This document shows, piece after piece, positions 7 through 38,949 of a stretch of 38,949 nucleotides of DNA. The notes below the pieces were generated by a model that was given only the letters and a program-made list of their open reading frames with translations, had not been told where the DNA came from and made no database searches. The stretch comes from a virus. The DNA lies in UHGV virus genome UHGV-0097970, one strand, 5' to 3'. The translations under genes and the position numbers were made by a program. Positions within the stretch are counted from its first letter, which is position 1. Every line of letters starts with the position of its first letter.

Positions 7-69
7 ATGATGAATGACGGTAAGCAACAATCTACCTTTTTGTTTCACGATTACGCGCAATACCCCTGA
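7..69 (+). pseudogene. sbcB: Displaced native 5' end of sbcB (exonuclease I), first 16 codons then phage sequence and stop
   Basis: Translation from ATG at 7 gives MMNDGKQQSTFLFHDY, matching the ExoI N-terminus as I recall it, then AQYP-stop after the att core. Confidence 0.75.
43..55. repeat. attL core
   Basis: tttcacgattacg is identical to 38871-38883; flanking 28 bp aligns with 4 mismatches (caaTctaccttTTtGttt vs caaCctaccttCCtCttt). Confidence 0.75.
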
Positions 70-110
70 GAACCGCAATGAACAAGGGTTTCATGATTTG
101 TGATTTTAGT

Positions 111-131
111 TTGGTACGCAATTTGGTACAC
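111..131 (+). promoter_or_regulatory. Putative integrase arm-type binding sites (left arm), TTGGTACGC and TTGGTACAC
   Basis: Two direct 9-mers here; three more copies of the same motif at 38666-38708 next to int. Confidence 0.45.
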
Positions 132-538
132 AACACTATTTTCACTTCAGCGGGTAGTCATCAAACTCACCATAACGAGCATCGTTGATGATGTATGTGA
201 TCACCACAAATATCACATCTGGACTAGTTCCGTCTTCATGCGCAGGTATCTGTTCACGCCTCCCTTTCTGCAAATCCTAAAGATGAGATTTTGGGGTTTT
301 GGGATATCTTTTTATCCTCAGTTCTCTATCCATTCTACAAAGCAGTAATGAACCATCACCGTGTGATAGTGAGGCATCCGCTACGTTAAGCGCAGAGAAA
401 TGATGCAGTGGTGGTCGGACTGGATTGATGAAAAGGTGTAGCAACCAACATTGCTATATCTCAGATAGCACAAAGCCTTGCAATCCAGTGCAAAGCTTTG
501 TGTGTCTCAGTTTTGTCTCATCGGTAATTATGTGTTCG

Positions 539-838
539 CTACGATGCAAGAATCCATACCAATAAGCATCCGATAATTGGGAAAGAAAAATCCAACAAAC
601 TTCCCACATCCCACACGCGTGGATCAAAACCTCCCCACCACGGCATGTTGACACGTTTCCCTTTCCCAAACTTTTCTATCCAGCGATATTCTGCCTGGGT
701 GTGTTCACGCGCAATGAAGAACGTACAACCGGCTATCGCACCGTAAGCCCAGTTTCCGGTAAAAATACCAACCAGTACCTGAGCCGCAAAAGCGCAAAGC
801 GAGTGAAGAAATGGAGTGACATCAATGCTCTTAATCAT
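539..838 (-). CDS. Small predicted membrane protein, hypothetical; possible moron
   Basis: 99-aa ORF with hydrophobic segments ([44 protein letters not shown]); its ATG overlaps the tailspike stop (ATGA at 835-838), implying co-transcription; sits between tailspike and attL. Confidence 0.5.
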
Positions 839-2892
839 GAAACTTCCCCGTTGGTTGAAAATATGGCTCCTCCAACTCCAAGTGTATTTCGTGTTGTGCT
901 CAACCTAAGAGGGCTGGAGTCAGAATTAGAATATCCTGTAGCAGAAATAAAAGATCCTCCACTAATAGTCAACTGCGGAACATCGGCTATATCTGAATAA
1001 GTTCTGTCAGCAACAGTATTATTTATAGCCACATATGATCCAAAAAAACTTCTTATTGTTTGGTTTTTAACTTTACTTCCTTCAATGGTTATCCTACTAC
1101 CACAGTCGGCAATAAATCCTGAATCTGCATCCAGCGTTGCATTCATAAAAGAAGCTTCAGATCTCTCTACATCAATCCATCTAATATCTTTTGTGGGATT
1201 TGCACCAAATACATGACAAATATTAGAGTTAAACCTTACACCATCTTGGAGGTGCATTAATTTTTTTATATCTGTACCCCATAGCCTTGGAAAATTAACA
1301 GATGCTCCTGCATGGCAATCAAATCCCAGCTCAGCCCCTGAGATATCTACAGCCTTTCCTGAAATAACAGCACCAGTGTCTGCATTAACGGCTGTTCCAC
1401 AATTGCGCATATCATTACCAGCAACATCAACACAACCCGCACCATCAATACGCACACCAAGTGCACATCCATAAAAACCTTTTTCAATATTTGGTTCAAG
1501 GACTTTACCACTTGTTTCTGCATCACTTTCTTCAACGTCATGTCGTCTTGCATCAACATATGCTGTATGAATGCAGGTTAATCCACGATATGAGCAATGT
1601 ATAGTTTTATGGTCGCGTATATTAACATTTGAACCATCTCTTACATTCCATCCTATATAACAATAGCTTGCACTTGACCCCTGAAAATCTGCTTTAACAT
1701 TATAAATACAATTAACTGACGCAACCGTACTCTCTGTGCACCGTTCAAACTTGCTTACAGGCATTGATGCCTTGACATTATTTACCAGTTGCAGGGAAGA
1801 GTATCTGCTATAAGAAAAATCACATACGTAATACCCTTCTGGCATATATGCAGCAACACTTTCCTCATCAGGAGCACATCCGGTATGATATGCACTAATT
1901 TTTGCACCAAAGCTACCATGAATTCCAACGTAGAACTTTCGAGCACCTGAATACGGATAGAAATTAAGTTCAGCTTTTTGAGTTACAATAAATGCACAAA
2001 CATCGCTATCATCTCTATTTTCTTCAATCTGAATAGCAAATACAGGACTTTTTGCTGCATCGCAAATGTAAAATAAATATTTGTATTCGTAATACGTCCT
2101 AACAGTTTTAGTAAACAAACTGGTATCAGAGAAAACCACTGAGTCTTCTGATATTATTTTAATCCATGATAAGTCACATCCTGCTGAAATTTCTATTTGC
2201 TCATTGAGCACAAAACCGGAAAGAATTTTAATTATGCAAAAATCAATGCCATTTTTCCATAGTGGACGCAGTGCAACAGCTGAGTTTAGAGCATCACTAA
2301 TAGATTTAAAATTACCATATTCCCCAACTGTTATTGTGAATGCATACCTGGAATTAAATACTGCGGCACTCTCTCCAGAGTTAATAGCTGCAGATATCAT
2401 GTCATAATTTGATATAAAATCATTTGGCGTGATTATTTCTGCGTTTTTATTGTGCTGTGTTCTAAGTTTTGAATTTACATGAACACTTTTAACTGCAATA
2501 CGGGAGTCGTCAACAAGTATTTCATTACCCTCTGTTGCTAACTCTTGTCTTAACTGATCCGGGTCATACTTCAGCACATTCGGAAAATAGAACTGCTGTG
2601 CACCATACGCATCATAAACAGCCATAGAATGGCCTTGCACAGTTACGAACTTGGCAATCTGTCCGTTATATACCGGGTAACCAGCAGTGTTAATGATGAT
2701 TGGTTGAGAAACAGGAACGTGAGAGCCGTCTTCGTTCTCCACATAAACCTGAATCTGGTTTTCAGGATTTACCGGGTCAGTGTCAATTTTACCGATATAA
2801 ATTTTGCCATTAGCTACGGCTTTAAAAGAACGCGCCATAGTGAAGAGTTGCGAAGGCATTGATACGATCACATTGGCTGTAATGTCTGTCAT
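835..2892 (-). CDS. Tailspike protein with P22 gp9-type N-terminal head-binding domain and divergent receptor-binding domain
   Basis: N-terminal ~110 aa ([13 protein letters not shown]...KYDPDQ) closely matches the P22 tailspike head-binding domain from memory; remaining ~570 aa are unrelated to P22 gp9 and AT-rich. Confidence 0.9.
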
Positions 2893-27136: not shown

Positions 27137-28510
27137 TCATACATCCGCTCCTGCATAACGCCGCCCTTTCTGTTGTGGCTGGCTTGCTGCGGTGCATTTA
27201 TTCCGGGCTTCATCCTGGTCGCATGCGACAAAGTGACCGTTGTGGAATCGCTGGTATACAGTCCCTAGAGAGCCAAAGCGGTTTTTCGTTACGATGATTT
27301 CTGCATAAGGTGCGGCCTGACTGTTTTCATCGTACACAGCTTCGCGGTACAGCATGATGATTGAGTCTGCATCCTGTTCGATGCTGCCGGAGTCGCGCAG
27401 GTCTGCGTTGGTAGGGCGTTTGTTCGGTCGCTTCTCAACGTCTCGCGATAACTGACTTAGCGATACAACCGGAGTTTTAAGCTCCTTCGCCATTGCCTTC
27501 AGACTTCCTGAGATGTGCGCAATAGCCAGGTCGTTTCGTTCTGCTTTCGGCTTCTCAATCAGGCCAAGATAATCCGCCATGATGAGTGACAGGTTTGGAT
27601 TTTCCTGTTTGTGTCGTTCTGCGATTGAGCGTATTTCTTCGACCGATAACCGCGAGGCATCGACTACCCATACATCCAAATCTGCAAGCTGACTCATGCC
27701 GTTAGCAACACGCGCCCAGCCTTCGTCATCCATCGATGCAGGATTTCGCAGTACGCTAACCGACATCCTCCCGGCGTTGGCAATGCTTCGCTCTGCAATC
27801 TGCAATGCGCTCATTTCCATTGAGAAAATCAATACCCCGCGTCGGACGTCAGAACCAGGAATAACGCGGCTTGCAACGCCTTCGGCAATCTTCAGCGCCA
27901 GTTCGGTTTTCCCCATACCAGGACGAGCAGCGATTATCACCAGGTCTTCCGCGTTCATCCCTCCGGTGATGGCATCAAGTTCTTCGATTCCGGTCTTCAG
28001 GGTATCTGACTCTTCTCCGTTCCTCAGACGCCTGTCAAGCGTGTCAGTGTAGTCAGTAATGATTTCCCCTAACCGTACAGGTTTTACCTCGTCACGGGGC
28101 TTTCTGATGGCTGAGAGACGCTTTACAAGCTCGTCCATCGCCTGACTCGATGTATCGATGGTTCCGCTCTGAATTGGTTCACGCATTTCATCCATGATTT
28201 CCAGCACCAGACGGCGGTGATAGTTATCAGCGACCATTCCGGCATATCCCTTCAGGTTTGCGGCACTCGGGCAGTTCTTACTGGTCATCAGGATTGACGT
28301 GAAATGCTCCTCTCCGCACGCCTCGGCAACCATCAGCGCGTCGATTAGGTTTCTGTTTCGCGCCTGCTTGCGGATAACCTCGAAGGCTTTCCGGTAGAGC
28401 GGAATTGAAAACGCTTCCGGCTCCAGCGTTGCCAGAACGTCGCTGGCGGTTGGTGTTAATCCACCAATCAGCAGGCCACCGATAACGCTCGCTTCGATAT
28501 CCTGTCTCAT
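27137..28510 (-). CDS. Replicative DNA helicase (DnaB family)
   Basis: 457 aa; Walker A region [13 protein letters not shown]; DnaB-like N-terminus; start overlaps O-like stop. Confidence 0.9.
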
Positions 28511-29454
28511 GCAACCCCCCTGTCTGCAAACTTCCCTTCCCGTACTCCCGTTAACGAATCTTCCCTCAGCAGGTAATCAAAATCTGCCGTCCAGCCAGTG
28601 TCGTTGTCTCCGAAGTAAAACGGCTTGGCCTGATGCACAAACGCCCTGACATACGCTCTGAAACCGTCCACGTTTGGCGTTTTCAGTTGCGGGATGATTT
28701 TCTTCAGGCGGCGTTTGCGTTTCTCGTTGACTGCAACAGCGTGTGGCAGTCTGTCACCGACTTCGGTGTTGTAGGCGTTCAGGAAGGATTCGTAGTCGAT
28801 TCGTTCTGCCTTGCGACGTTCAGGTTTAACCTGCCCATCGCCTCCCCCATTGGGGGGTAGGGGGGTATTATTTATATTCTTGTTAATACCTTCTTGTTCA
28901 TGATGTGCGGTTGTTTGTGCGGCTTCATGTGCGCTTTCATGTGCGGTATGTGCGCTGAAAGCCGCGCCATTACTGGCTTCGTCATGTGCGGCATCATGTG
29001 CGGTTGTTTGTGCGGCTTCATGTGCGGGTAAATTGTCCGTTTTTTGAGCATATTCATGGTAATTTGTGATGGTGATCACACGACCTTTTTGCTTCTCTCC
29101 ATCAATGGAGATCATCCCCTCTTTCACAAAAACCTGAAGCATCCGCTCAACCTGATCACGGCTTGCCGGCTTGCCATGCCTGTCGCATAACTGAAGACCT
29201 AAATCAGCTGCTGTCACAACCAGTTGACCGGGTTGCAGATGCCATTCATGACCTTTGAAATTCGCTTTGTATGGCTTTCTGGCGGCATTCAGGAGAAGGT
29301 TTTCCCACAGGGTGCGAAGATAAACATCTTTCGCCCATGACTGTTTCAGAATGCTCCGGTACAACGGAATGTAACCAGTTTTCTGGTTCTCCATCCTGTT
29401 GCTCCTGCGCTCGTGTGCGGCGCTGAAATCGTAGATTTTTGCTGTATTGCTCAT
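28507..29454 (-). CDS. Replication initiator (O-like) with internal origin iterons
   Basis: 315 aa upstream of the helicase; central [14 protein letters not shown] repeats are encoded by the DNA iterons. Confidence 0.8.
28895..29035. repeat. Replication origin iterons inside the O-like gene
   Basis: 35-bp direct repeat at 28899-28933 and 28992-29026 (catgatgtgcggttgtttgtgcggcttcatgtgcg), about nine ATGTGCGG units at ~11-bp spacing, with AT-rich tract at 28861-28890. Confidence 0.75.
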
Positions 29455-30154: not shown

Positions 30155-30379
30155 TTATGCTGCCTGATTAGGTTTTGGAAACAGGTGTGGCAAATCGGGG
30201 CGAATTTCGTAAGCCTTGATCTGCCCTCCAGTGGCGTTAACGATGGCGGTAACTTTCTCTGGAGAGACCAATCCGCCTTTCAGCCATTTGTGTACTGCTG
30301 GCTGCGTTACACCACACTTGTCGGCAAGGCGCTTTTGGCTACCGACAATTTTCAAGGCTCGTTGAATTACTAAATTCAT
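30155..30379 (-). CDS. cro: Cro-like repressor
   Basis: MNLVIQRALKIVGSQKRLADKCGVTQPAVHKWLKGG... Cro-like HTH; AGAGG RBS; divergent from cI across the operator region. Confidence 0.8.
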   Translation of the reverse strand: MNLVIQRALKIVGSQKRLADKCGVTQPAVHKWLKGGLVSPEKVTAIVNATGGQIKAYEIRPDLPHLFPKPNQAA

Positions 30380-30400
30380 GAGCATACCTCTTGTGGTCAT

Positions 30401-30490
30401 TGATTATAACCAAAGATAACTCAAGTTATAAAAAATAGCAATAACCTTTGTTATTTTACTTTGGATAACCGTAGTTATAGATTTGTGGGT
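30401..30490. promoter_or_regulatory. OR operator region with pR/pRM; three ATAAC-N4-GTTAT operators
   Basis: Sites at 30415-30428, 30440-30453, 30464-30477 spaced about 24-25 bp; minus-strand -10 TATAAT (comp. 30402-30407) upstream of cro. Confidence 0.7.
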
Positions 30491-31198
30491 ATGAAAACAT
30501 TCGCAGAAAGACTAAATGCAGCCATGAGCTCAGCTGGGGTATCACAATCACAGCTTGCTGACATGGTTGGAATATCTCAGCCAGCCATACAGAAGATGTC
30601 GTCCGGTAAAACAAACGGATCTCGCAAGATGGTTGAATTAGCCAATGCTTTAAAAGTGCGCCCTGAATGGCTTAGTTCTGGTATTGGTGAAATGAGGGAT
30701 GGTGCACATGAAGAACCATCCAATGTCCGTGAGTCATCTTTAAAAGCTGTGGTATGGGAAGACATTAAAAGAAACGATGACGAGTTTGTTGCGTTGCCTC
30801 TTCTTAACGTTTCGCTTTCAGCGGGAAGCGGTAGCTGCGAGCTAGAGGAATCATCGGAGTTCTCTTTGGTTTTCAGAAAGCACTATCTGAAAAAGATGGG
30901 AGTATCTGAAAGATCAGCCAAGCTAGTTAGGGTTGTAGGGCAAAGCATGGAACCAACGCTTCACGATGGCGATGTTGTTGGTGTTAACACGCAAGATACC
31001 ACCATCAGAGATGGTAAAACCTACGCTATTTGCCAGTCTGATTTGTTACGAGTAAAAACATTAATCGCCACCCCTACATCGGTGATAATCAGATCAATAA
31101 ATCGCGAAGAGTACCCGGATGAAGTAATGGATAGAGATGAATTTCATGAAACCGTAAGGATTATTGGCAGAGTATTCTGGTCGTCTCATAGTTGGTAA
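30491..31198 (+). CDS. cI: CI-type prophage repressor (HTH + active-looking S24 peptidase)
   Basis: HTH LSQSQLADMVGISQPAIQKM; C-terminal GQSMEPT (Ser present) and LRVKTL Lys; start at MKTFAERL since upstream ATG overlaps the operators. Confidence 0.9.
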   Translation: MKTFAERLNAAMSSAGVSQSQLADMVGISQPAIQKMSSGKTNGSRKMVELANALKVRPEWLSSGIGEMRDGAHEEPSNVRESSLKAVVWEDIKRNDDEFVALPLLNVSLSAGSGSCELEESSEFSLVFRKHYLKKMGVSERSAKLVRVVGQSMEPTLHDGDVVGVNTQDTTIRDGKTYAICQSDLLRVKTLIATPTSVIIRSINREEYPDEVMDRDEFHETVRIIGRVFWSSHSW

Positions 31199-32055: not shown

Positions 32056-32355
32056 ATGACAGTAGTCATTACATATCTGGCTGACGATAACGCCAGAAAT
32101 CGCCGCAGAGCACGCAGACAGGATCAACGTGAACAGGCAATGCAAGAACAGCGACTGGCGCGAAAAATTGCGCTAAAGCTCTCTGGTTGCGTCAGAGCAG
32201 ACAAAGCAGCATCACTCGGAAGCCTTCTCTGCAAGAAGACAGAAGAAGTCGAGAGTAAACAGAATCGTATTTACTACCGCAAGCCACGCAGTGAAATGGG
32301 TGTGACTTGTGTTGGTCGCCAGAAAATGAAATTAGGCAGCAAACCACTTATTTGA
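32056..32355 (+). CDS. N: N-type transcription antiterminator
   Basis: Arg-rich motif DNARNRRRARRQDQREQ near N-terminus; C-terminus YYRKPRSEMGVTCVGRQKMKLGSKPLI resembles lambda N (WYSKPGERGITCSGRQKIKGKSIPLI). Confidence 0.8.
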   Translation: MTVVITYLADDNARNRRRARRQDQREQAMQEQRLARKIALKLSGCVRADKAASLGSLLCKKTEEVESKQNRIYYRKPRSEMGVTCVGRQKMKLGSKPLI

Positions 32356-35783: not shown

Positions 35784-36743
35784 ATGACCACCTTTACCAA
35801 AGAACAGCTAATTGATCATATTAATGATCGCAAAGATGTCCGTCAGAGAATGTTGGATACCGCAACGATTTCTTCTGGATTCCGAGAATATCTTGAAAGA
35901 GAGCTTGCTACCGATCAGATTGCCCTAGCTTCGCTGGAAGCTGAACCTGTTCTGTATCAGTCCTGCACTCGCCCCACCTGGAATAGCGGTGTTCCGTGGA
36001 CGGAATGGAAAGAACGTAGTCGTGAGGGCTACGAAGACGATTTGCGCTTTACAGACACGCCTGACCATGCCGGTTGGATAAACAAATGTCGAAAACTATA
36101 TACCACTCCGCCAGCGCCGATAGCGTTAGAGGCCATTGAAAACGCAATTGAATACATCCGCAGTATCGCTTTTCACATCAATGAAGACGATTACCACGGC
36201 AAGCATATTGCGTATTTCATGCGACAAGCATTGGCCTGGCTGGAAGGGCATTCATGCAGCGACGACAGACTGGGTAAAGCCGAGAATCAAACAGTACACG
36301 GCAACCAGGCTGCCGAATCCAATCGCGGTAATGAGTGGACCGGCAATCCTGATATTGATAACGCCATCATTATGCTCGATCGCATAGATACGCTGGAAAG
36401 TTGCGATGATAACCGTATTGAGGCGGTTAAAGCTGTTTTGCGTAAACTGGCTGGCAACTCTCCGGTAACTCAGGATAGTTGGATAAGCTGTAGTGAGAGA
36501 ATGCCTGTAATCGGCGAGCTAAATTGGAGAACTAGTTTTCCTTTGCTGATTACGTGTGAGATCGGCGTTATACCAGCTTATTACGGCTTTGTGAGCGTTA
36601 ATGGGAATAAGCATTATGGTTTTATGGAGAGTCTTAAATACGGAGACGATAACGGCAACCATCCTCAAACTAATGAATATGGTCTGATTAGCAATGTCAC
36701 ACACTGGATGCCACTACCAGAACCGCCGCAGGAGGCAAAATGA
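35784..36743 (+). CDS. Hypothetical protein with DUF551-like C-terminal domain
   Basis: C-terminus WISCSERMPV...THWMPLPEPP resembles DUF551 from memory. Confidence 0.5.
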   Translation: MTTFTKEQLIDHINDRKDVRQRMLDTATISSGFREYLERELATDQIALASLEAEPVLYQSCTRPTWNSGVPWTEWKERSREGYEDDLRFTDTPDHAGWINKCRKLYTTPPAPIALEAIENAIEYIRSIAFHINEDDYHGKHIAYFMRQALAWLEGHSCSDDRLGKAENQTVHGNQAAESNRGNEWTGNPDIDNAIIMLDRIDTLESCDDNRIEAVKAVLRKLAGNSPVTQDSWISCSERMPVIGELNWRTSFPLLITCEIGVIPAYYGFVSVNGNKHYGFMESLKYGDDNGNHPQTNEYGLISNVTHWMPLPEPPQEAK

Positions 36744-37000
36744 TGGATGTAAAAGAGAAGGTTTTGCAGGTGATGCGTTCCCGTTCTGCCCTGCAAGAGA
36801 AAGCTCTCGGCGGGGAATATCCATTCACGATAGCAACCTGGAATCTGCGGTTGGCAATGGAGAAGGAATTTCCTGATGAAGAATGGCGTTCGGCAGATTT
36901 GCGCAAAATTCTTATGGAGCTGGCTAAAGACGGAGCAGTATCCAAAGATACCTATGCCAGCCGGATTGGTCAGGCGGTATGGAGACTGGAGGTGCGGTAA
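36740..37000 (+). CDS. Hypothetical protein
   Basis: 86-aa ORF with ATGA overlap to the upstream gene. Confidence 0.45.
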   Translation: MMDVKEKVLQVMRSRSALQEKALGGEYPFTIATWNLRLAMEKEFPDEEWRSADLRKILMELAKDGAVSKDTYASRIGQAVWRLEVR

Positions 37001-37038
37001 TGGCTAACCTGCAACTTGCCGTCAAATGTGAATAACAA

Positions 37039-37066
37039 TCCTCGCACTCGCGGGGATTTCTTTTAT
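37039..37066 (+). terminator. Intrinsic terminator (first of tandem pair)
   Basis: TCCTCGC-act-GCGGGGA then TTTCTTTT. Confidence 0.55.
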
Positions 37067-37069
37067 CTG

Positions 37070-37094
37070 AACTCGCTACGGCGAGTTTTGTTTT
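37070..37094 (+). terminator. Intrinsic terminator (second of tandem pair)
   Basis: AACTCGC-tacg-GCGAGTT then TTGTTTT. Confidence 0.65.
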
Positions 37095-37107
37095 ATGGAG
37101 ATGATAA

Positions 37108-37275
37108 ATGCACTTCCGAGTCACAGGTGAATGGAATGGAGAGCCATTCGACAGGGTTATCGAAGCAGAGAACATCAACGACTGCTATGACCACTGGATG
37201 ATATGGGCGCAGATAGCACATGCAGACGTAACCAATATTCGAATTGAAGAACTGAAAGAACACCAAGCCGCCTGA
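37108..37275 (+). CDS. Hypothetical small protein (55 aa; not in ORF track)
   Basis: My translation: MHFRVTGEWNGEPFDRVIEAENINDCYDHWMIWAQIAHADVTNIRIEELKEHQAA; GGAG 7 nt upstream; bracketed by terminators. Confidence 0.4.
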   Translation: MHFRVTGEWNGEPFDRVIEAENINDCYDHWMIWAQIAHADVTNIRIEELKEHQAA

Positions 37276-37290
37276 TGGCGGTTTCTTTTT
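37267..37290 (+). terminator. Intrinsic terminator
   Basis: GCCGCC-tgat-GGCGGT then TTCTTTTT. Confidence 0.6.
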
Positions 37291-37305
37291 GCCTGGAGAA
37301 TTAAG

Positions 37306-37497
37306 ATGACCGATACCAGCCTGATTCCTGAGAAAGAAGTGATGAACAAGCTCGGTGTTTCATCACGTCAGACAATCTGGAACTATACCAAACGGCATGG
37401 ATTTCCGAAGCCAGTCAGAACCCACCCCAAATCATACCTTCGCGAAGCTGTTGAAGGGTGGATTCTTAACGGTGGCGTTAATCAGAAATGCTCCTGA
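37306..37497 (+). CDS. AlpA-family excisionase / DNA-binding regulator
   Basis: EKEVMNKLGVSSRQTIWNYTKRHGFPKPVRTHPKSYLREAVEGWI fits the AlpA/Xis pattern. Confidence 0.8.
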   Translation: MTDTSLIPEKEVMNKLGVSSRQTIWNYTKRHGFPKPVRTHPKSYLREAVEGWILNGGVNQKCS

Positions 37498-38656
37498 TGT
37501 GCCAGAACAATTTATCAGCGTGAAGCTCATACGCTTTGCGCTGAGCCTCTATCCAATCGTGTTTATTGTATACGGACATTATCCCGCCAAGTTCATGACC
37601 GAGCATTCGCTCAGTAACATGAGGCTCGACATTCATCTCGGACAGACGTGTAACAAGCGTTCTTCTGAAATCATGTGTTCGCCAGTAACCTATATCCATC
37701 CCTCCCCTTATTCTATTTACGAATCGGTTGGCTGCAGCGATGCTGATCGGTTTGTTTATGTCTTCTCCAGGGAAAAGAACATCATTGTACGTTGTCATGG
37801 CCTTTTCGAGAAAAGGCTTAATTTGTTCGAAGATTGGACGACGGATAACATTACCCATCTTGCTATGCTCTTTCGGTACGGTCCATACGTTGTCCAGCAG
37901 GTCAAATTCTGTCTTTGTTGCCAGCCTAAGCTCTGAGAGCCTCGCCCCCCACAGCATAAGCATCTGATGAAGGAGCTTATTTGACGTAGACGCACGGCTT
38001 CTTTCAATAGCAAGCCAAATCTTAGCCAGTTCGTGATACGACAGTACCCGATCCCCTACCTCAGCGCGGGAGCCGAAGTCCCTTGGCTGGATGCTCATAA
38101 TTGCGCAACTATCTATCAACTGACGCCGCATGCACCAACTAATTGCTGATCTTAGTTGACTTAGCACCTGCCTTGCTCGGCGTGGATTATCTCTTTCTTC
38201 TTCGGTAAGCAGGTCAACCCATTGCTTAACCGTGATAGAAGATGCCGGACGATTAGGAAATGCGTCATGCATGCGCTTCATAACCGTTGATCGGTAAAGT
38301 GCCTGGGTCTTTTCTCTGAGAGTTGTAGAGACGTAGTTGTCGAACCAGTAGTCGAGACACTGGGCGACCGTCATGGAGTTCTCCACCTTCTCTTCAAAAT
38401 AAGTGCGTGGATCCGTTCCTGAGAAATAGAGCTTTCGCAAGTCAGCAGTGATCTGTCTGGCATCCTTCAAAGACAGGGATGGGTATCGACCAAGCCCAAG
38501 TCGATTAGGCTTGCCATGCCAGCGATAGCGGTACTGGAACTGGATGACCCCCTTCGGTGAAATTCGTACGCTGAGGCCATCGGCATCAGCCACTTCTTGT
38601 GGGCCCGAATATGGTTTACCATAAATAGTACGAAGTTTTGTGTCGCTTATAGCCAT
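37478..38656 (-). CDS. int: Tyrosine integrase
   Basis: 392 aa; N-terminal arm-binding-type region; C-terminal catalytic signature HDFRRT ... GHELGGIMSVYNKHD with Tyr; adjacent to attR. Confidence 0.95.
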   Translation of the reverse strand: MAISDTKLRTIYGKPYSGPQEVADADGLSVRISPKGVIQFQYRYRWHGKPNRLGLGRYPSLSLKDARQITADLRKLYFSGTDPRTYFEEKVENSMTVAQCLDYWFDNYVSTTLREKTQALYRSTVMKRMHDAFPNRPASSITVKQWVDLLTEEERDNPRRARQVLSQLRSAISWCMRRQLIDSCAIMSIQPRDFGSRAEVGDRVLSYHELAKIWLAIERSRASTSNKLLHQMLMLWGARLSELRLATKTEFDLLDNVWTVPKEHSKMGNVIRRPIFEQIKPFLEKAMTTYNDVLFPGEDINKPISIAAANRFVNRIRGGMDIGYWRTHDFRRTLVTRLSEMNVEPHVTERMLGHELGGIMSVYNKHDWIEAQRKAYELHADKLFWHIRSISD

Positions 38657-38665
38657 AAATAATAT

Positions 38666-38708
38666 TTGGTACGCTCAAAAATAATGGTTTGGTACACATC
38701 TGGTACAC
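38666..38708 (+). promoter_or_regulatory. Putative integrase arm-type sites (3 copies) overlapping the int promoter region
   Basis: TTGGTACGC (38666-38674), TTGGTACAC (38689-38697), TGGTACAC (38701-38708); same motif as 111-131. Confidence 0.45.
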
Positions 38709-38837
38709 AATATCACATGGACAACAGCGCACAGTAAACAACTATATTTGACGTTCGTAGACATACTCAGGTGAAAAAAGGGTTGTTTTTCGAGTTATAA
38801 CAGACAGTTAATTAACTACAGTGGACAATGCTAGACA

Positions 38838-38949
38838 ATGACAGACACAGATAAGCAACCTACCTTCCTCTTTCACGATTACGAAACCTTTGGAACGCAC
38901 CCCGCGTTAGATCGCCCTGCACAGTTCGCAGCCATTCGCACCGATAGCG
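38838..38949 (+). CDS. sbcB: sbcB (exonuclease I) 5' end, reconstituted with phage-encoded first 10 codons; partial, continues beyond window
   Basis: MTDTDKQPTFLFHDYETFGTHPALDRPAQFAAIRTDS; from the att core onward matches the ExoI N-terminus as I recall it, while the first ~10 codons differ from native MMNDGKQQST. Confidence 0.8.
   Translation, partial: MTDTDKQPTFLFHDYETFGTHPALDRPAQFAAIRTDS
38871..38883. repeat. attR core
   Basis: tttcacgattacg identical to 43-55. Confidence 0.75.

Follow-up and report, generated by a model that had tools for sequence, protein, structure and literature searches.

The int/xis end of this genome carries a complete integration module of the sbcB type, and its arrangement is the standard layout already published for lambdoid phages of the 2851/phi24B type that insert in E. 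coli sbcB. The DNA analyzed, hereafter called the window, is the whole 38,949-nucleotide stretch of the virus genome UHGV-0097970. We consider it very probable that the element is a P22-like lambdoid prophage lodged in the 5' end of sbcB and that its site-specific recombination module is of the published '2851 type', a relative of the phi24B system. The module is probably functional. When the 2.25-kb module was compared, its xis/int/att arm DNA proved to be 98-99% identical to that of HK140, mEp234, phage 2851 and many Stx phages, and the attP of the matching phages is annotated as 'type 2851'. Among 5426 complete E. coli genomes, 135 have 80% or more of the 2.25-kb query beside sbcB. The features discussed below are collected in Table 1.

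Table 1. Features of the integration module and its surroundings (positions are those of the window)
Feature	Position	Strand	Remarks
att core, int-distal junction	43..55		13 bp; preceded by the native sbcB 5' end (7-55)
Conserved distal att flank	56..520		Travels with 2851-type int; holds decayed gene remnants
Putative arm-type doublet, distal arm	111..131	-	TTGGTACGC at 111-119 and TTGGTACAC at 123-131, read on the + strand
Terminator-like hairpin 1	37037..37058	+	Opens the tandem pair that precedes orf55; stem of 9 pairs with a T-run behind it
Terminator-like hairpin 2	37069..37088	+	-11.9 kcal/mol; corresponds to the predicted t4 of lambda (PMC4195576)
orf55	37108..37275	+	Homologue of lambda lambdap35, 55 aa; accessory gene of the lambdoid exo-xis region
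Terminator-like hairpin 3	37265..37284	+	Overlaps the orf55 stop codon; 22 nt before the xis start codon
xis	37306..37497	+	AlpA-like helix-turn-helix recombination directionality factor of 63 aa; final gene in the pL operon
xis/int 3'-end overlap	37478..37497		20 nt
int	37478..38656	-	P4-family tyrosine integrase, 392 aa; transcribed away from the adjacent att, towards xis
Putative arm-type repeat 3, int-proximal arm	38666..38674	-	Read on the int strand as GCGTACCAA; the int ATG lies 10 nt beyond its end
Putative arm-type repeat 2	38689..38697	-	GTGTACCAA on the int strand
Putative arm-type repeat 1	38700..38708	-	Read on the int strand as GTGTACCAG; differs from the 9-mer at one position
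Best candidate int promoter	38709..38738	-	-35 TTTACT (38738-38733), 18-nt spacer, -10 GATATT (38714-38709)
Five degenerate GTnnA units, 10-bp phase	38718..38762	-	GT at 38762, 38752, 38742, 38732 and 38722
Replacement sbcB 5' end, phage-borne	38838..38870	+	MTDTDKQPTFL...; keeps the host gene open after insertion
att core, int-proximal junction	38871..38883		13 bp, TTTCACGATTACG; direct repeat with 43-55

The attP core, CGTAATCGTGAAA, which recombines with the 5' end of sbcB, is duplicated at the two junctions, and the attP of HK140 corresponds to the two ends of the window joined at this core. The same 13-bp core in sbcB has been published as the attP core of phages 2851 and Sf101 (PMC4159516). 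The distal att flank is 91-95% identical in mEp234, 2851, Sf101 and 1717. On the int side, the prophage gives the host sbcB its first 11 codons together with the whole promoter region; indeed, PGAP annotates in a lysogen an intact sbcB that starts at the equivalent of position 38838.

The two recombination proteins fit this assignment. Int contains an Arm-DNA-bind_3 domain (PF13356, E = 8e-18) followed by a Phage_integrase domain (PF00589, E = 7.5e-17), and its catalytic residues R239, K266, H328, R331, H354 and Y363 are invariant in an alignment with the integrases of phi24B and SEN34. Type-2851 phages such as EC.P3 and Stx2_5044 have integrases about 99% identical to it; with the integrase of phi24B it shares 56.5% identity. 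The small gene on the + strand, preceded at 9 nt by the Shine-Dalgarno sequence GGAG, had been taken for an excisionase gene from the sequence alone, and its product is indeed a homologue (46.6% identity) of the experimentally validated Xis of phi24B. The phi24B xis gene was validated by complementation, and it is for the phi24B protein only that Xis was shown to be needed for, and sufficient to direct, Int-mediated excision (PMC3064807). The protein of the window, which recurs with 100% identity in HK140 and mEp234, matches PHROG 66 (E = 2e-8), annotated as 'excisionase and transcriptional regulator', with no match in NCBIfam. Its description as 'AlpA-type' holds at the level of the family only, since the window protein itself scores 17.8 bits (E = 0.003) against the Pfam AlpA profile PF05930, below the gathering cut-off of 21. 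Among 21 Xis relatives, ten reach E <= 0.01 with PF05930, the strongest match having E = 4e-7, and a profile built from the 21 matches the AlpA structure 8c3t over residues 2-54 (E = 6e-4). A single-sequence AlphaFold2 model of Xis (pLDDT 59.6, pTM 0.34) was too poor for a fold search.

As the sequence-only reading had stated, xis and int converge, their 3' ends overlapping, and they do not form an operon, int being on the strand opposite to xis and to the pL operon. This differs from a lambda-type operon, in which xis and int are co-directional and co-transcribed from pL toward att, pI serving as a further promoter for int. That reading had also called this end of the prophage 'unusual', a description that has to be given up, because the convergent overlap is found in published phages and is conserved among relatives. 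We scanned 53 of these, all from Enterobacterales except for one from Orbaceae and with integrases mostly 49-75% identical to that of the window. In 45 of them the overlap measures 14, 17, 20 or 23 nt, a length that is always congruent to 2 modulo 3; in a few (L023, L047, L011, L048) a gap of 2-25 nt or of more than 700 nt separates xis from int. We regard the 20-nt convergent overlap as a feature inherited with the int-xis gene pair. There is no terminator between the two genes, and a conserved intrinsic terminator 3' of int, on its own strand, was sought in 34 relatives and found in none, which means that int transcripts probably reach into xis. The sole hairpin beyond int in the window is the weak reverse side of terminator 3, located past the xis start; as a dedicated int terminator it was discarded in view of the same 34 relatives. 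Conversely, pL read-through, if it continues beyond xis, would run antisense through int.

These observations raise the question of whether the overlap works as a reciprocal switch, based on antisense RNA or transcriptional interference. After induction, N-antiterminated pL transcripts would cross xis into int and silence Pint or the int mRNA; in the lysogen, constitutive int transcripts would span xis and suppress leaky Xis synthesis. The conserved overlap in a fixed frame and the lack of a terminator between the two genes speak for such a switch, as does the lack of a conserved intrinsic terminator behind int in the 34 relatives. The conservation, however, may merely reflect vertical inheritance of a compact gene pair; the overlap is not obligatory, since a few relatives have the two genes apart; and a strong silencing of int at induction would be counter-productive because Int is needed for excision. 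On balance, we think that a functional switch of this kind is unlikely, and hold to the overlap as an inherited trait of the pair. Another regulatory consequence may be considered for the host gene. The sbcB promoter region lies in the same 180-bp arm as the Int sites and the putative Xis sites, so that exonuclease I expression could depend, through occupancy by Int and Xis, on whether the prophage is lysogenic or induced. Taken jointly, the interference switch and this coupling of exonuclease I to the prophage state have, in our estimation, a low probability.

The repeated 9-mer TTGGTACRC, which had been reported five times across both prophage ends, is present as four exact copies (starting at 111, 123, 38666 and 38689), confined to the two ends; the fifth, at 38700 (CTGGTACAC), carries one mismatch. 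Only 0.44 exact copies are expected, and none of 100 shuffled sequences reaches four matches. The shorter TGGTACRC occurs six times versus 1.4 expected, and five of the six are inside the att arms. Three repeats with a GTAC core directly precede int in all 51 relatives examined; repeats 1 and 2 are spaced by 11 bp in 50 of these 51, and the GTAC cores of repeats 2 and 3 by 22-25 bp in 48. On the distal arm, the doublet starts 56 bp from the att core and its GTAC cores are 12 bp apart, and a doublet with this 12-bp spacing is also found on the other arm in SEN34 and phi24B. The repeats are placed, on both att arms, as expected for arm-type sites of an integrase, and this is how they are best read from the sequence. 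Which way the sites point cannot be told from the sequence, GTAC being a palindrome.

One could suppose instead that the repeats are operators for Xis or for a host regulator, or mere promoter-context sequence. They do overlap promoter elements, and P4 Vis and KplE1 TorI are known to act at int control regions as well (PMC2951348). But the exact 9-mer is found on both att arms and nowhere else, and the doublet and the triplet are kept while the bases around them change in step with the integrase subfamily (GTACCAA for the window type versus GTACA(G/T)AAT for the phi24B type). In addition, Int has an arm-binding domain, and a second repeat, GTYCA phased at 10 bp, is a better candidate for recognition by a directionality factor. 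Operators or mere promoter context in place of arm sites are thus highly improbable. This second repeat is clear, with an exact 10-bp spacing, in several relatives (L009-L011 and others) and weak in the window, where the five GTnnA units may be binding sites for Xis or for another architectural protein. The two att arms contain no exact match to the IHF consensus WATCAANNNNTTR, whose total number of sites is lower than expected by chance. This agrees with the reported independence of phi24B Int from IHF but is no proof.

The interpretation of the GTAC repeats as Int arm-type sites bears on the expression of int itself. The int ATG (38656) is separated from the core by only 214 bp, and since int is adjacent to att and transcribed away from it, its promoter should lie within the att arm. 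The best candidate, identified by a script scan, matches 8 of 12 consensus positions and has an extended -10 TG at 38717-38716. A generic sigma-70 scan of 36000-38949, its threshold set at 9 of 12, returned no promoter in front of int or elsewhere in that interval, so that the candidate is drawn from the script scan and from conservation. Indeed, a TGn(G/A/C)ATATT block is conserved within the sbcB-type subfamily. In the window, the extended -10 ends 1 nt before repeat 1 and 2 nt before its GTAC core, and the predicted transcription start falls within repeat 1. Candidate promoters are predicted to overlap the repeats in both subfamilies, L028 having a 10-of-12 sigma-70 match, and the overlap is clear in phi24B-type relatives. 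The int gene of phi24B has its own promoter, mapped by 5'-RACE, which is not repressed by CI (PMC3064807). KplE1 IntS and P4 Int repress their own promoters, which overlap att, and Panis et al. 2010 had predicted int autoregulation as a general case (PMC2951348). By analogy with these two integrases, autoregulation is likely here too, a reasonable suggestion because the repeats occupy arm-site positions and would overlap the best promoter candidate.

The 55-aa ORF upstream of xis is flanked, as had been noted, by three terminators on the + strand, two hairpins before it and one after. These terminators are real: nine terminator-like sites were counted in 36000-38949 versus 2.4 +/- 1.4 in shuffled sequences. 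Hairpin 1 (-13.1 kcal/mol, z = -4.9) is identical in lambda, and hairpin 3 (-13.0 kcal/mol on the + strand, weakly terminator-like on the - strand with z = -1.1) corresponds to the predicted t5 of lambda, is an annotated terminator in HK140 and is common to P22, ST64T and HK633. An earlier list of predicted terminators for the lambda exo-xis region (PMC4195576) includes at least two of the three hairpins, t4 and t5. An Rfam scan of 36000-38949 (E <= 1) returned no known RNA family, with two sub-threshold Leu-leader matches only, both on terminator hairpins. The orf55 product is identical to lambda NP_597778 at 54 of 55 residues and belongs to PHROG 676 (E = 2e-39), with no match in Pfam or NCBIfam. 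The whole block, orf55 plus hairpins, is about 97% identical to lambda 29100-29357 and near-identical up to the end of terminator 3, the same three hairpins being present there. The bracketed ORF can thus not be counted as a feature of the int/xis module: it is a block of the lambda exo-xis region that stands upstream of xis by chance, outside the recombination module. Moreover, mEp234 and other phages with the same int and xis are devoid of the block, so that the module does not need it. That orf55 is an autonomous moron, expressed in the prophage from its own promoter, ended by its own terminator and tied to int/xis control, is most unlikely: terminators do flank it, as in many morons, and the block travels as a whole between lambdoid phages (it is complete in 65 phage records), but the generic scan found no promoter-like site in the region, the T-tail of terminator 2 touches the orf55 Shine-Dalgarno sequence and leaves no space for a promoter, and the block precedes xis genes of unrelated types in lambda and in the window.

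How the module relates to known systems can now be specified. Phages 2851, Sf101, HK140, mEp234 and HK544, as well as many Stx1 and Stx2 phages inserted in sbcB, carry essentially the same element, with the same 13-bp core in the sbcB 5' end, the 20-nt xis/int overlap and the distal flank. They differ from the window in neighbouring cargo only, the lambda orf55 cassette being upstream of xis in the window and HK140 and missing from mEp234. Beyond the module, the window has a P22-like virion module. Phage phi24B (Fogg et al. 2011, PMC3064807; Mohaisen et al. 2020, PMC7581858) has homologous Int and Xis proteins, an int gene that runs opposite to pL from a promoter of its own, a convergent xis with a 17-nt 3' overlap, and likewise three GTAC repeats before int and the doublet on the other arm. 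Its core, integration site and arm-site flanks, however, are not those of the window, and the promoter geometry differs, the -10 overlapping repeat 2 in phi24B whereas the extended -10 of the window type is just upstream of repeat 1.

Parallels are also offered by the IntS-TorI systems of KplE1 (CPS-53), HK620 and Sf6 and by Int-Vis of the satellite phage P4. There, the int promoter sits within the att arm, where arm-type sites overlap it, Int acts as its own repressor, and transcription of int is uncoupled from that of the directionality factor (PMC2951348). The Int of P4 and that of the window are members of one broad integrase family, and Vis resembles AlpA in being a small helix-turn-helix protein of the same kind. 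The KplE1/Sf6 layout was rejected as an exact precedent for the convergent overlap, since torI, attP and int are co-directional there with attP in between, unlike the convergent, overlapping xis and int of the window. KplE1, HK620 and Sf6 also use the argW tRNA gene for integration, whereas a protein-coding gene is used here; and autoregulation, which was tested experimentally in the KplE1 and P4 systems, is for the window suggested by analogy. With the lambda int-xis operon and its sib retroregulation, the window shares the position of xis at the distal end of an N-antiterminated pL operon and the block of orf55 and terminators directly upstream of it. It differs in that int is inverted and independent of pL and that Xis and Int are unrelated in type to those of lambda.

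A working model can be assembled from these elements. Int recombines at the 13-bp core, and its N-terminal domain would bind the five putative GTAC-core arm-type sites, three beside int and two on the far arm. The int gene would have its own promoter inside the att arm, reading away from att, which would place it outside pL/CI control. As the three proximal arm sites would cover the int promoter and leader, bound Int would limit its own transcription, resulting in a low constitutive expression of the kind suggested by KplE1 IntS and P4 Int. With the N-like, cI-like and cro-like genes as landmarks, xis falls at the end of pL; located behind three intrinsic terminators, it would be expressed only after induction, under the action of the N-like antiterminator (32056-32355). 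The supply of Xis alone would then decide excision, as in the model proposed for phi24B.

The comparison has yielded a few by-products of possible use for engineering or typing these phages: the conserved GTAC triplet and doublet, the two promoter geometries and the second repeat phased at 10 bp. The putative GTAC arm sites, the promoter geometries and the phased repeat are concrete targets for footprinting; with them a known paradigm is extended rather than a new question opened. The integration module of the sbcB type is the kind that spreads Stx and serotype-converting phages.

The window contains a single complete prophage, ~38.8 kb long, lying between the halves of a split sbcB gene. Its two ends share an imperfect direct repeat of 28 nucleotides (28-55 and 38856-38883, 86% identical), the final 13 of which, TTTCACGATTACG, are the same at both ends. 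Since the attP region of the free phage HK140 is exactly the right end of the window joined to the left end at this 13-bp core, the assignment of the junctions is proven. The virion genes are P22-like, as exemplified by the tailspike gene, and the early region is lambdoid; the cI-like, cro and N-like genes identify the + strand from ~31.6 kb to 37.5 kb as the pL operon. Elsewhere, a cluster of 12-bp periodic repeats of the CATGTGCGG type (28897-29039, at least 4 copies) sits within a 315-aa ORF (28507-29454) beside a DnaB-like helicase ORF, and resembles the iterons of a lambdoid origin of replication in an O-like gene.

Coordinates of the features of the prophage and of its int/xis/att end
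Feature	Coordinates	Strand	Remark
Native sbcB start	7-55		left end; MMNDGKQQSTFLFHDY
Distal GTAC doublet	111-131		exact 9-mers at 111 and 123
Tailspike gene	835-2892		P22-like
cro	30155-30400	-
cI-like repressor gene	30461-31198	+
N-like antiterminator gene	32056-32355	+
Terminator 1	37037-37058	+	-13.1 kcal/mol
Terminator 2	37069-37088	+	-11.9 kcal/mol
orf55	37108-37275		55 aa
Terminator 3	37265-37284	+	-13.0 kcal/mol
xis	37306-37497	+	63 aa
int	37478-38656	-	392 aa
Repeat 3	38666		exact 9-mer
Repeat 2	38689		exact 9-mer
Repeat 1	38700		variant 9-mer
Candidate int promoter	-35 TTTACT 38738-38733; TG 38717-38716; GATATT 38714-38709	-	script scan
Degenerate GTYCA array	38718-38762	-	GT at 38762, 38752, 38742, 38732, 38722
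sbcB continuation	from 38884		right end

The terminal 2.25 kb (36700-38949) is 98-99% identical to HK140, mEp234, 2851, 1717 and many Stx1 and Stx2 phages, whose records carry the annotation 'type 2851' for an att site in sbcB. At least 80% of this query, adjoining sbcB, is present in 135 of 5426 complete E. coli genomes. The closest characterised relative is the Stx phage phi24B (Int 56.5% and Xis 46.6% identical to the window proteins), which has the same layout: int at 236-1405 and xis at 1389-1571 on the opposite strand, overlapping by 17 nt. The int gene of phi24B is inverted relative to lambda, has its own 5'-RACE-mapped promoter that is active in lysogens, and escapes CI repression; its Int cannot excise alone, the excisionase being a small convergent ORF placed under pL (Fogg et al., PMC3064807). 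Thus, the arrangement that the sequence-only reading had called unusual is the described arrangement of the family, and the end of the window is an ordinary sbcB-type module of the kind already described in the literature. Every sequence element listed in that reading was found where it had been placed, and it had correctly recognised an int/xis/att end that carries arm-type repeats, binding by Int being the inferred part.

The convergent xis and int genes have 20 nt in common at their 3' ends, as had been noted. We fetched 80 genomic loci encoding Int relatives and located the xis homologues in them; none was detected in 4 of the loci searched. Overlaps were counted in 53 Enterobacterales loci (one from Orbaceae), with Int mostly 49-75% identical and one near-identical E. 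coli copy. A convergent xis overlaps int by 14, 17, 20 or 23 nt in 45 of these, and the length is always 2 modulo 3, so that the relative reading frame of the two genes is fixed. In a few loci the genes lie 2-25 nt or more than 700 nt apart. The overlap is therefore, as judged from these loci, an inherited trait of the integrase clade, but not an obligatory one. An antisense or interference role for the overlap has a low probability. In its favour, no conserved terminator was found 3' of int on the int strand in 34 relatives, so int transcripts probably extend across xis; against it, the overlap is dispensable in some relatives, which lack it.

The designation of Xis as AlpA-type holds only at the level of the family. 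A profile of 21 members matches the AlpA-family structure 8c3t over nearly its full length (E = 6e-4), and 10 of the 21 match PF05930 (best E = 4e-7). The window protein itself falls below threshold (17.8 bits versus a Pfam cut-off of 21), and its single-sequence structure model was too poor for use. It is most aptly called a distant AlpA-like helix-turn-helix excisionase.

Four of the five reported copies of the 9-mer TTGGTACRC are exact, versus 0.44 expected (0 of 100 shuffles reach four); the fifth, repeat 1, reads CTGGTACAC. When the 110 nt upstream of int were compared in the window and 50 relatives, three GTAC-core motifs appeared in a strikingly constant architecture: the spacing of the first two is 11 bp in 50 of the 51 sequences, that of the second and third is 22-25 bp in 48, and the third begins 12-18 nt 5' of the int start codon in most. 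Their flanks split by subfamily, GTACCAA for the window type versus GTACA(G/T)AAT for the phi24B type, a pattern that co-evolution with the arm-binding domain would produce. The other att arm carries two GTAC motifs 12 bp apart in the window, SEN34 and phi24B, the window doublet lying 56 bp from the core. Together with the Arm-DNA-bind_3 domain of Int, these features argue far better for Int arm-type sites than for any other reading of the repeats; operators for another protein are unlikely, given their occurrence on both att arms. In many relatives, GTYCA units at exact 10-bp intervals (22 instances; four to five tandem units in loci L009-L011) lie immediately upstream of repeat 1, and the window retains a degenerate array. 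Helically phased direct repeats beside arm sites are binding places of directionality factors such as lambda Xis and TorI; by analogy, the GTYCA units are, speculatively, candidate Xis sites.

A generic scan at its threshold gave no sigma-70 site upstream of int in the window. By script scan, two promoter geometries were found over the same three arm sites, according to subfamily. Relatives of the phi24B type have TTGCCA-18-CA(T/G)AAT, matching at up to 10 of 12 positions (L028, one such locus, was confirmed by the scan tool), with repeat 1 inside the spacer and repeat 2 abutting or overlapping the -10. This prediction agrees with the phi24B 5'-RACE start, ~25-30 nt 5' of the start codon as estimated from the paper's description (PMC3064807). 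The window subfamily keeps an extended -10, TGn(G/A/C)ATATT; its end lies 2 nt ahead of the repeat 1 GTAC core. Relative to the arm sites, the promoter position differs by ~20 bp between the subfamilies L028-L051 and L008-L027. In either predicted geometry, the arm sites lie over the promoter or over the first 45 nt of the transcript. KplE1 IntS and P4 Int act as autorepressors in such a configuration, whose generality was predicted by Panis et al. (PMC2951348); by this analogy, autoregulation of int is likely in the window. No recognisable Shine-Dalgarno sequence precedes the int start codon (38657-38670, - strand), the 12 nt 5' of the ATG being A/T only, as in most relatives; this would fit low int expression.

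The prophage replaces the first sbcB codons (38838-38883 versus 7-55; native MMNDGKQQSTFLF becomes MTDTDKQPTFLF) and likewise the whole upstream region of the gene. As sbcB is annotated intact by PGAP in such lysogens, the host gene promoter must then lie in the phage att arm, where it would face away from int and sit amid the Int sites and the putative sites for Xis. The far-side flank, ~460 bp past the core (56 to ~520), is kept at 91-95% in type 2851 phages. Positions 133-441 hold decayed coding remnants only, including a 22-codon stretch ending in RYVKRREMMQWWSDWIDEKV and a stop, which may resemble the C-terminus of P4-type integrases. This flank also matches a stretch labelled error-prone repair protein in one mEp234 record, and an intact UmuD-like gene adjoins attP in HK140.

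Three hairpins with T-runs do surround orf55, and the region 36000-38949 holds 9 terminator-like sites versus 2.4 +/- 1.4 in shuffles. The block bounded by terminators 1 and 3 is nearly the same in lambda (29100-29357; ~97% identity, estimated from the alignment), whose lambdap35 shares 54 of 55 residues with the orf55 product; the homology ends within ~20 nt past terminator 3, where unrelated xis genes start. At least two of the hairpins had already been listed, as t4 and t5, among the terminators predicted for the lambda exo-xis region (PMC4195576). The full block occurs in 65 phage records, among them lambda, 434 and DE3, and single hairpins are separately common to P22, ST64T, HK633 and many Stx and Salmonella phages, a pattern typical of mosaic boundary sequences. 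Hundreds of lambdoid and P22-like phages have individual hairpins of the cassette at boundaries between modules, which suggests that the hairpins may act as linkers where mosaic blocks recombine. Phage mEp234 has the same int and xis without orf55. Terminator 2 has a T-tail that extends into the ribosome-binding site of orf55, leaving orf55 without a promoter of its own, and this want of room contradicts an autonomous moron. Taken together, these comparisons make the cassette lambdoid cargo from lambda. Its sole bearing on the module is that antitermination is needed for pL transcripts to reach xis, which is textbook lambda logic and also the phi24B model.

We propose that in the lysogen, with pL shut by CI, the three terminators would halt stray transcription and no Xis would be made, while int would be weakly transcribed from its att-embedded promoter and self-limited via the three proximal arm sites. 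Upon induction, N-modified pL transcription would pass the terminators and supply Xis, which would build the excisive complex together with resident Int at the arm sites and core.
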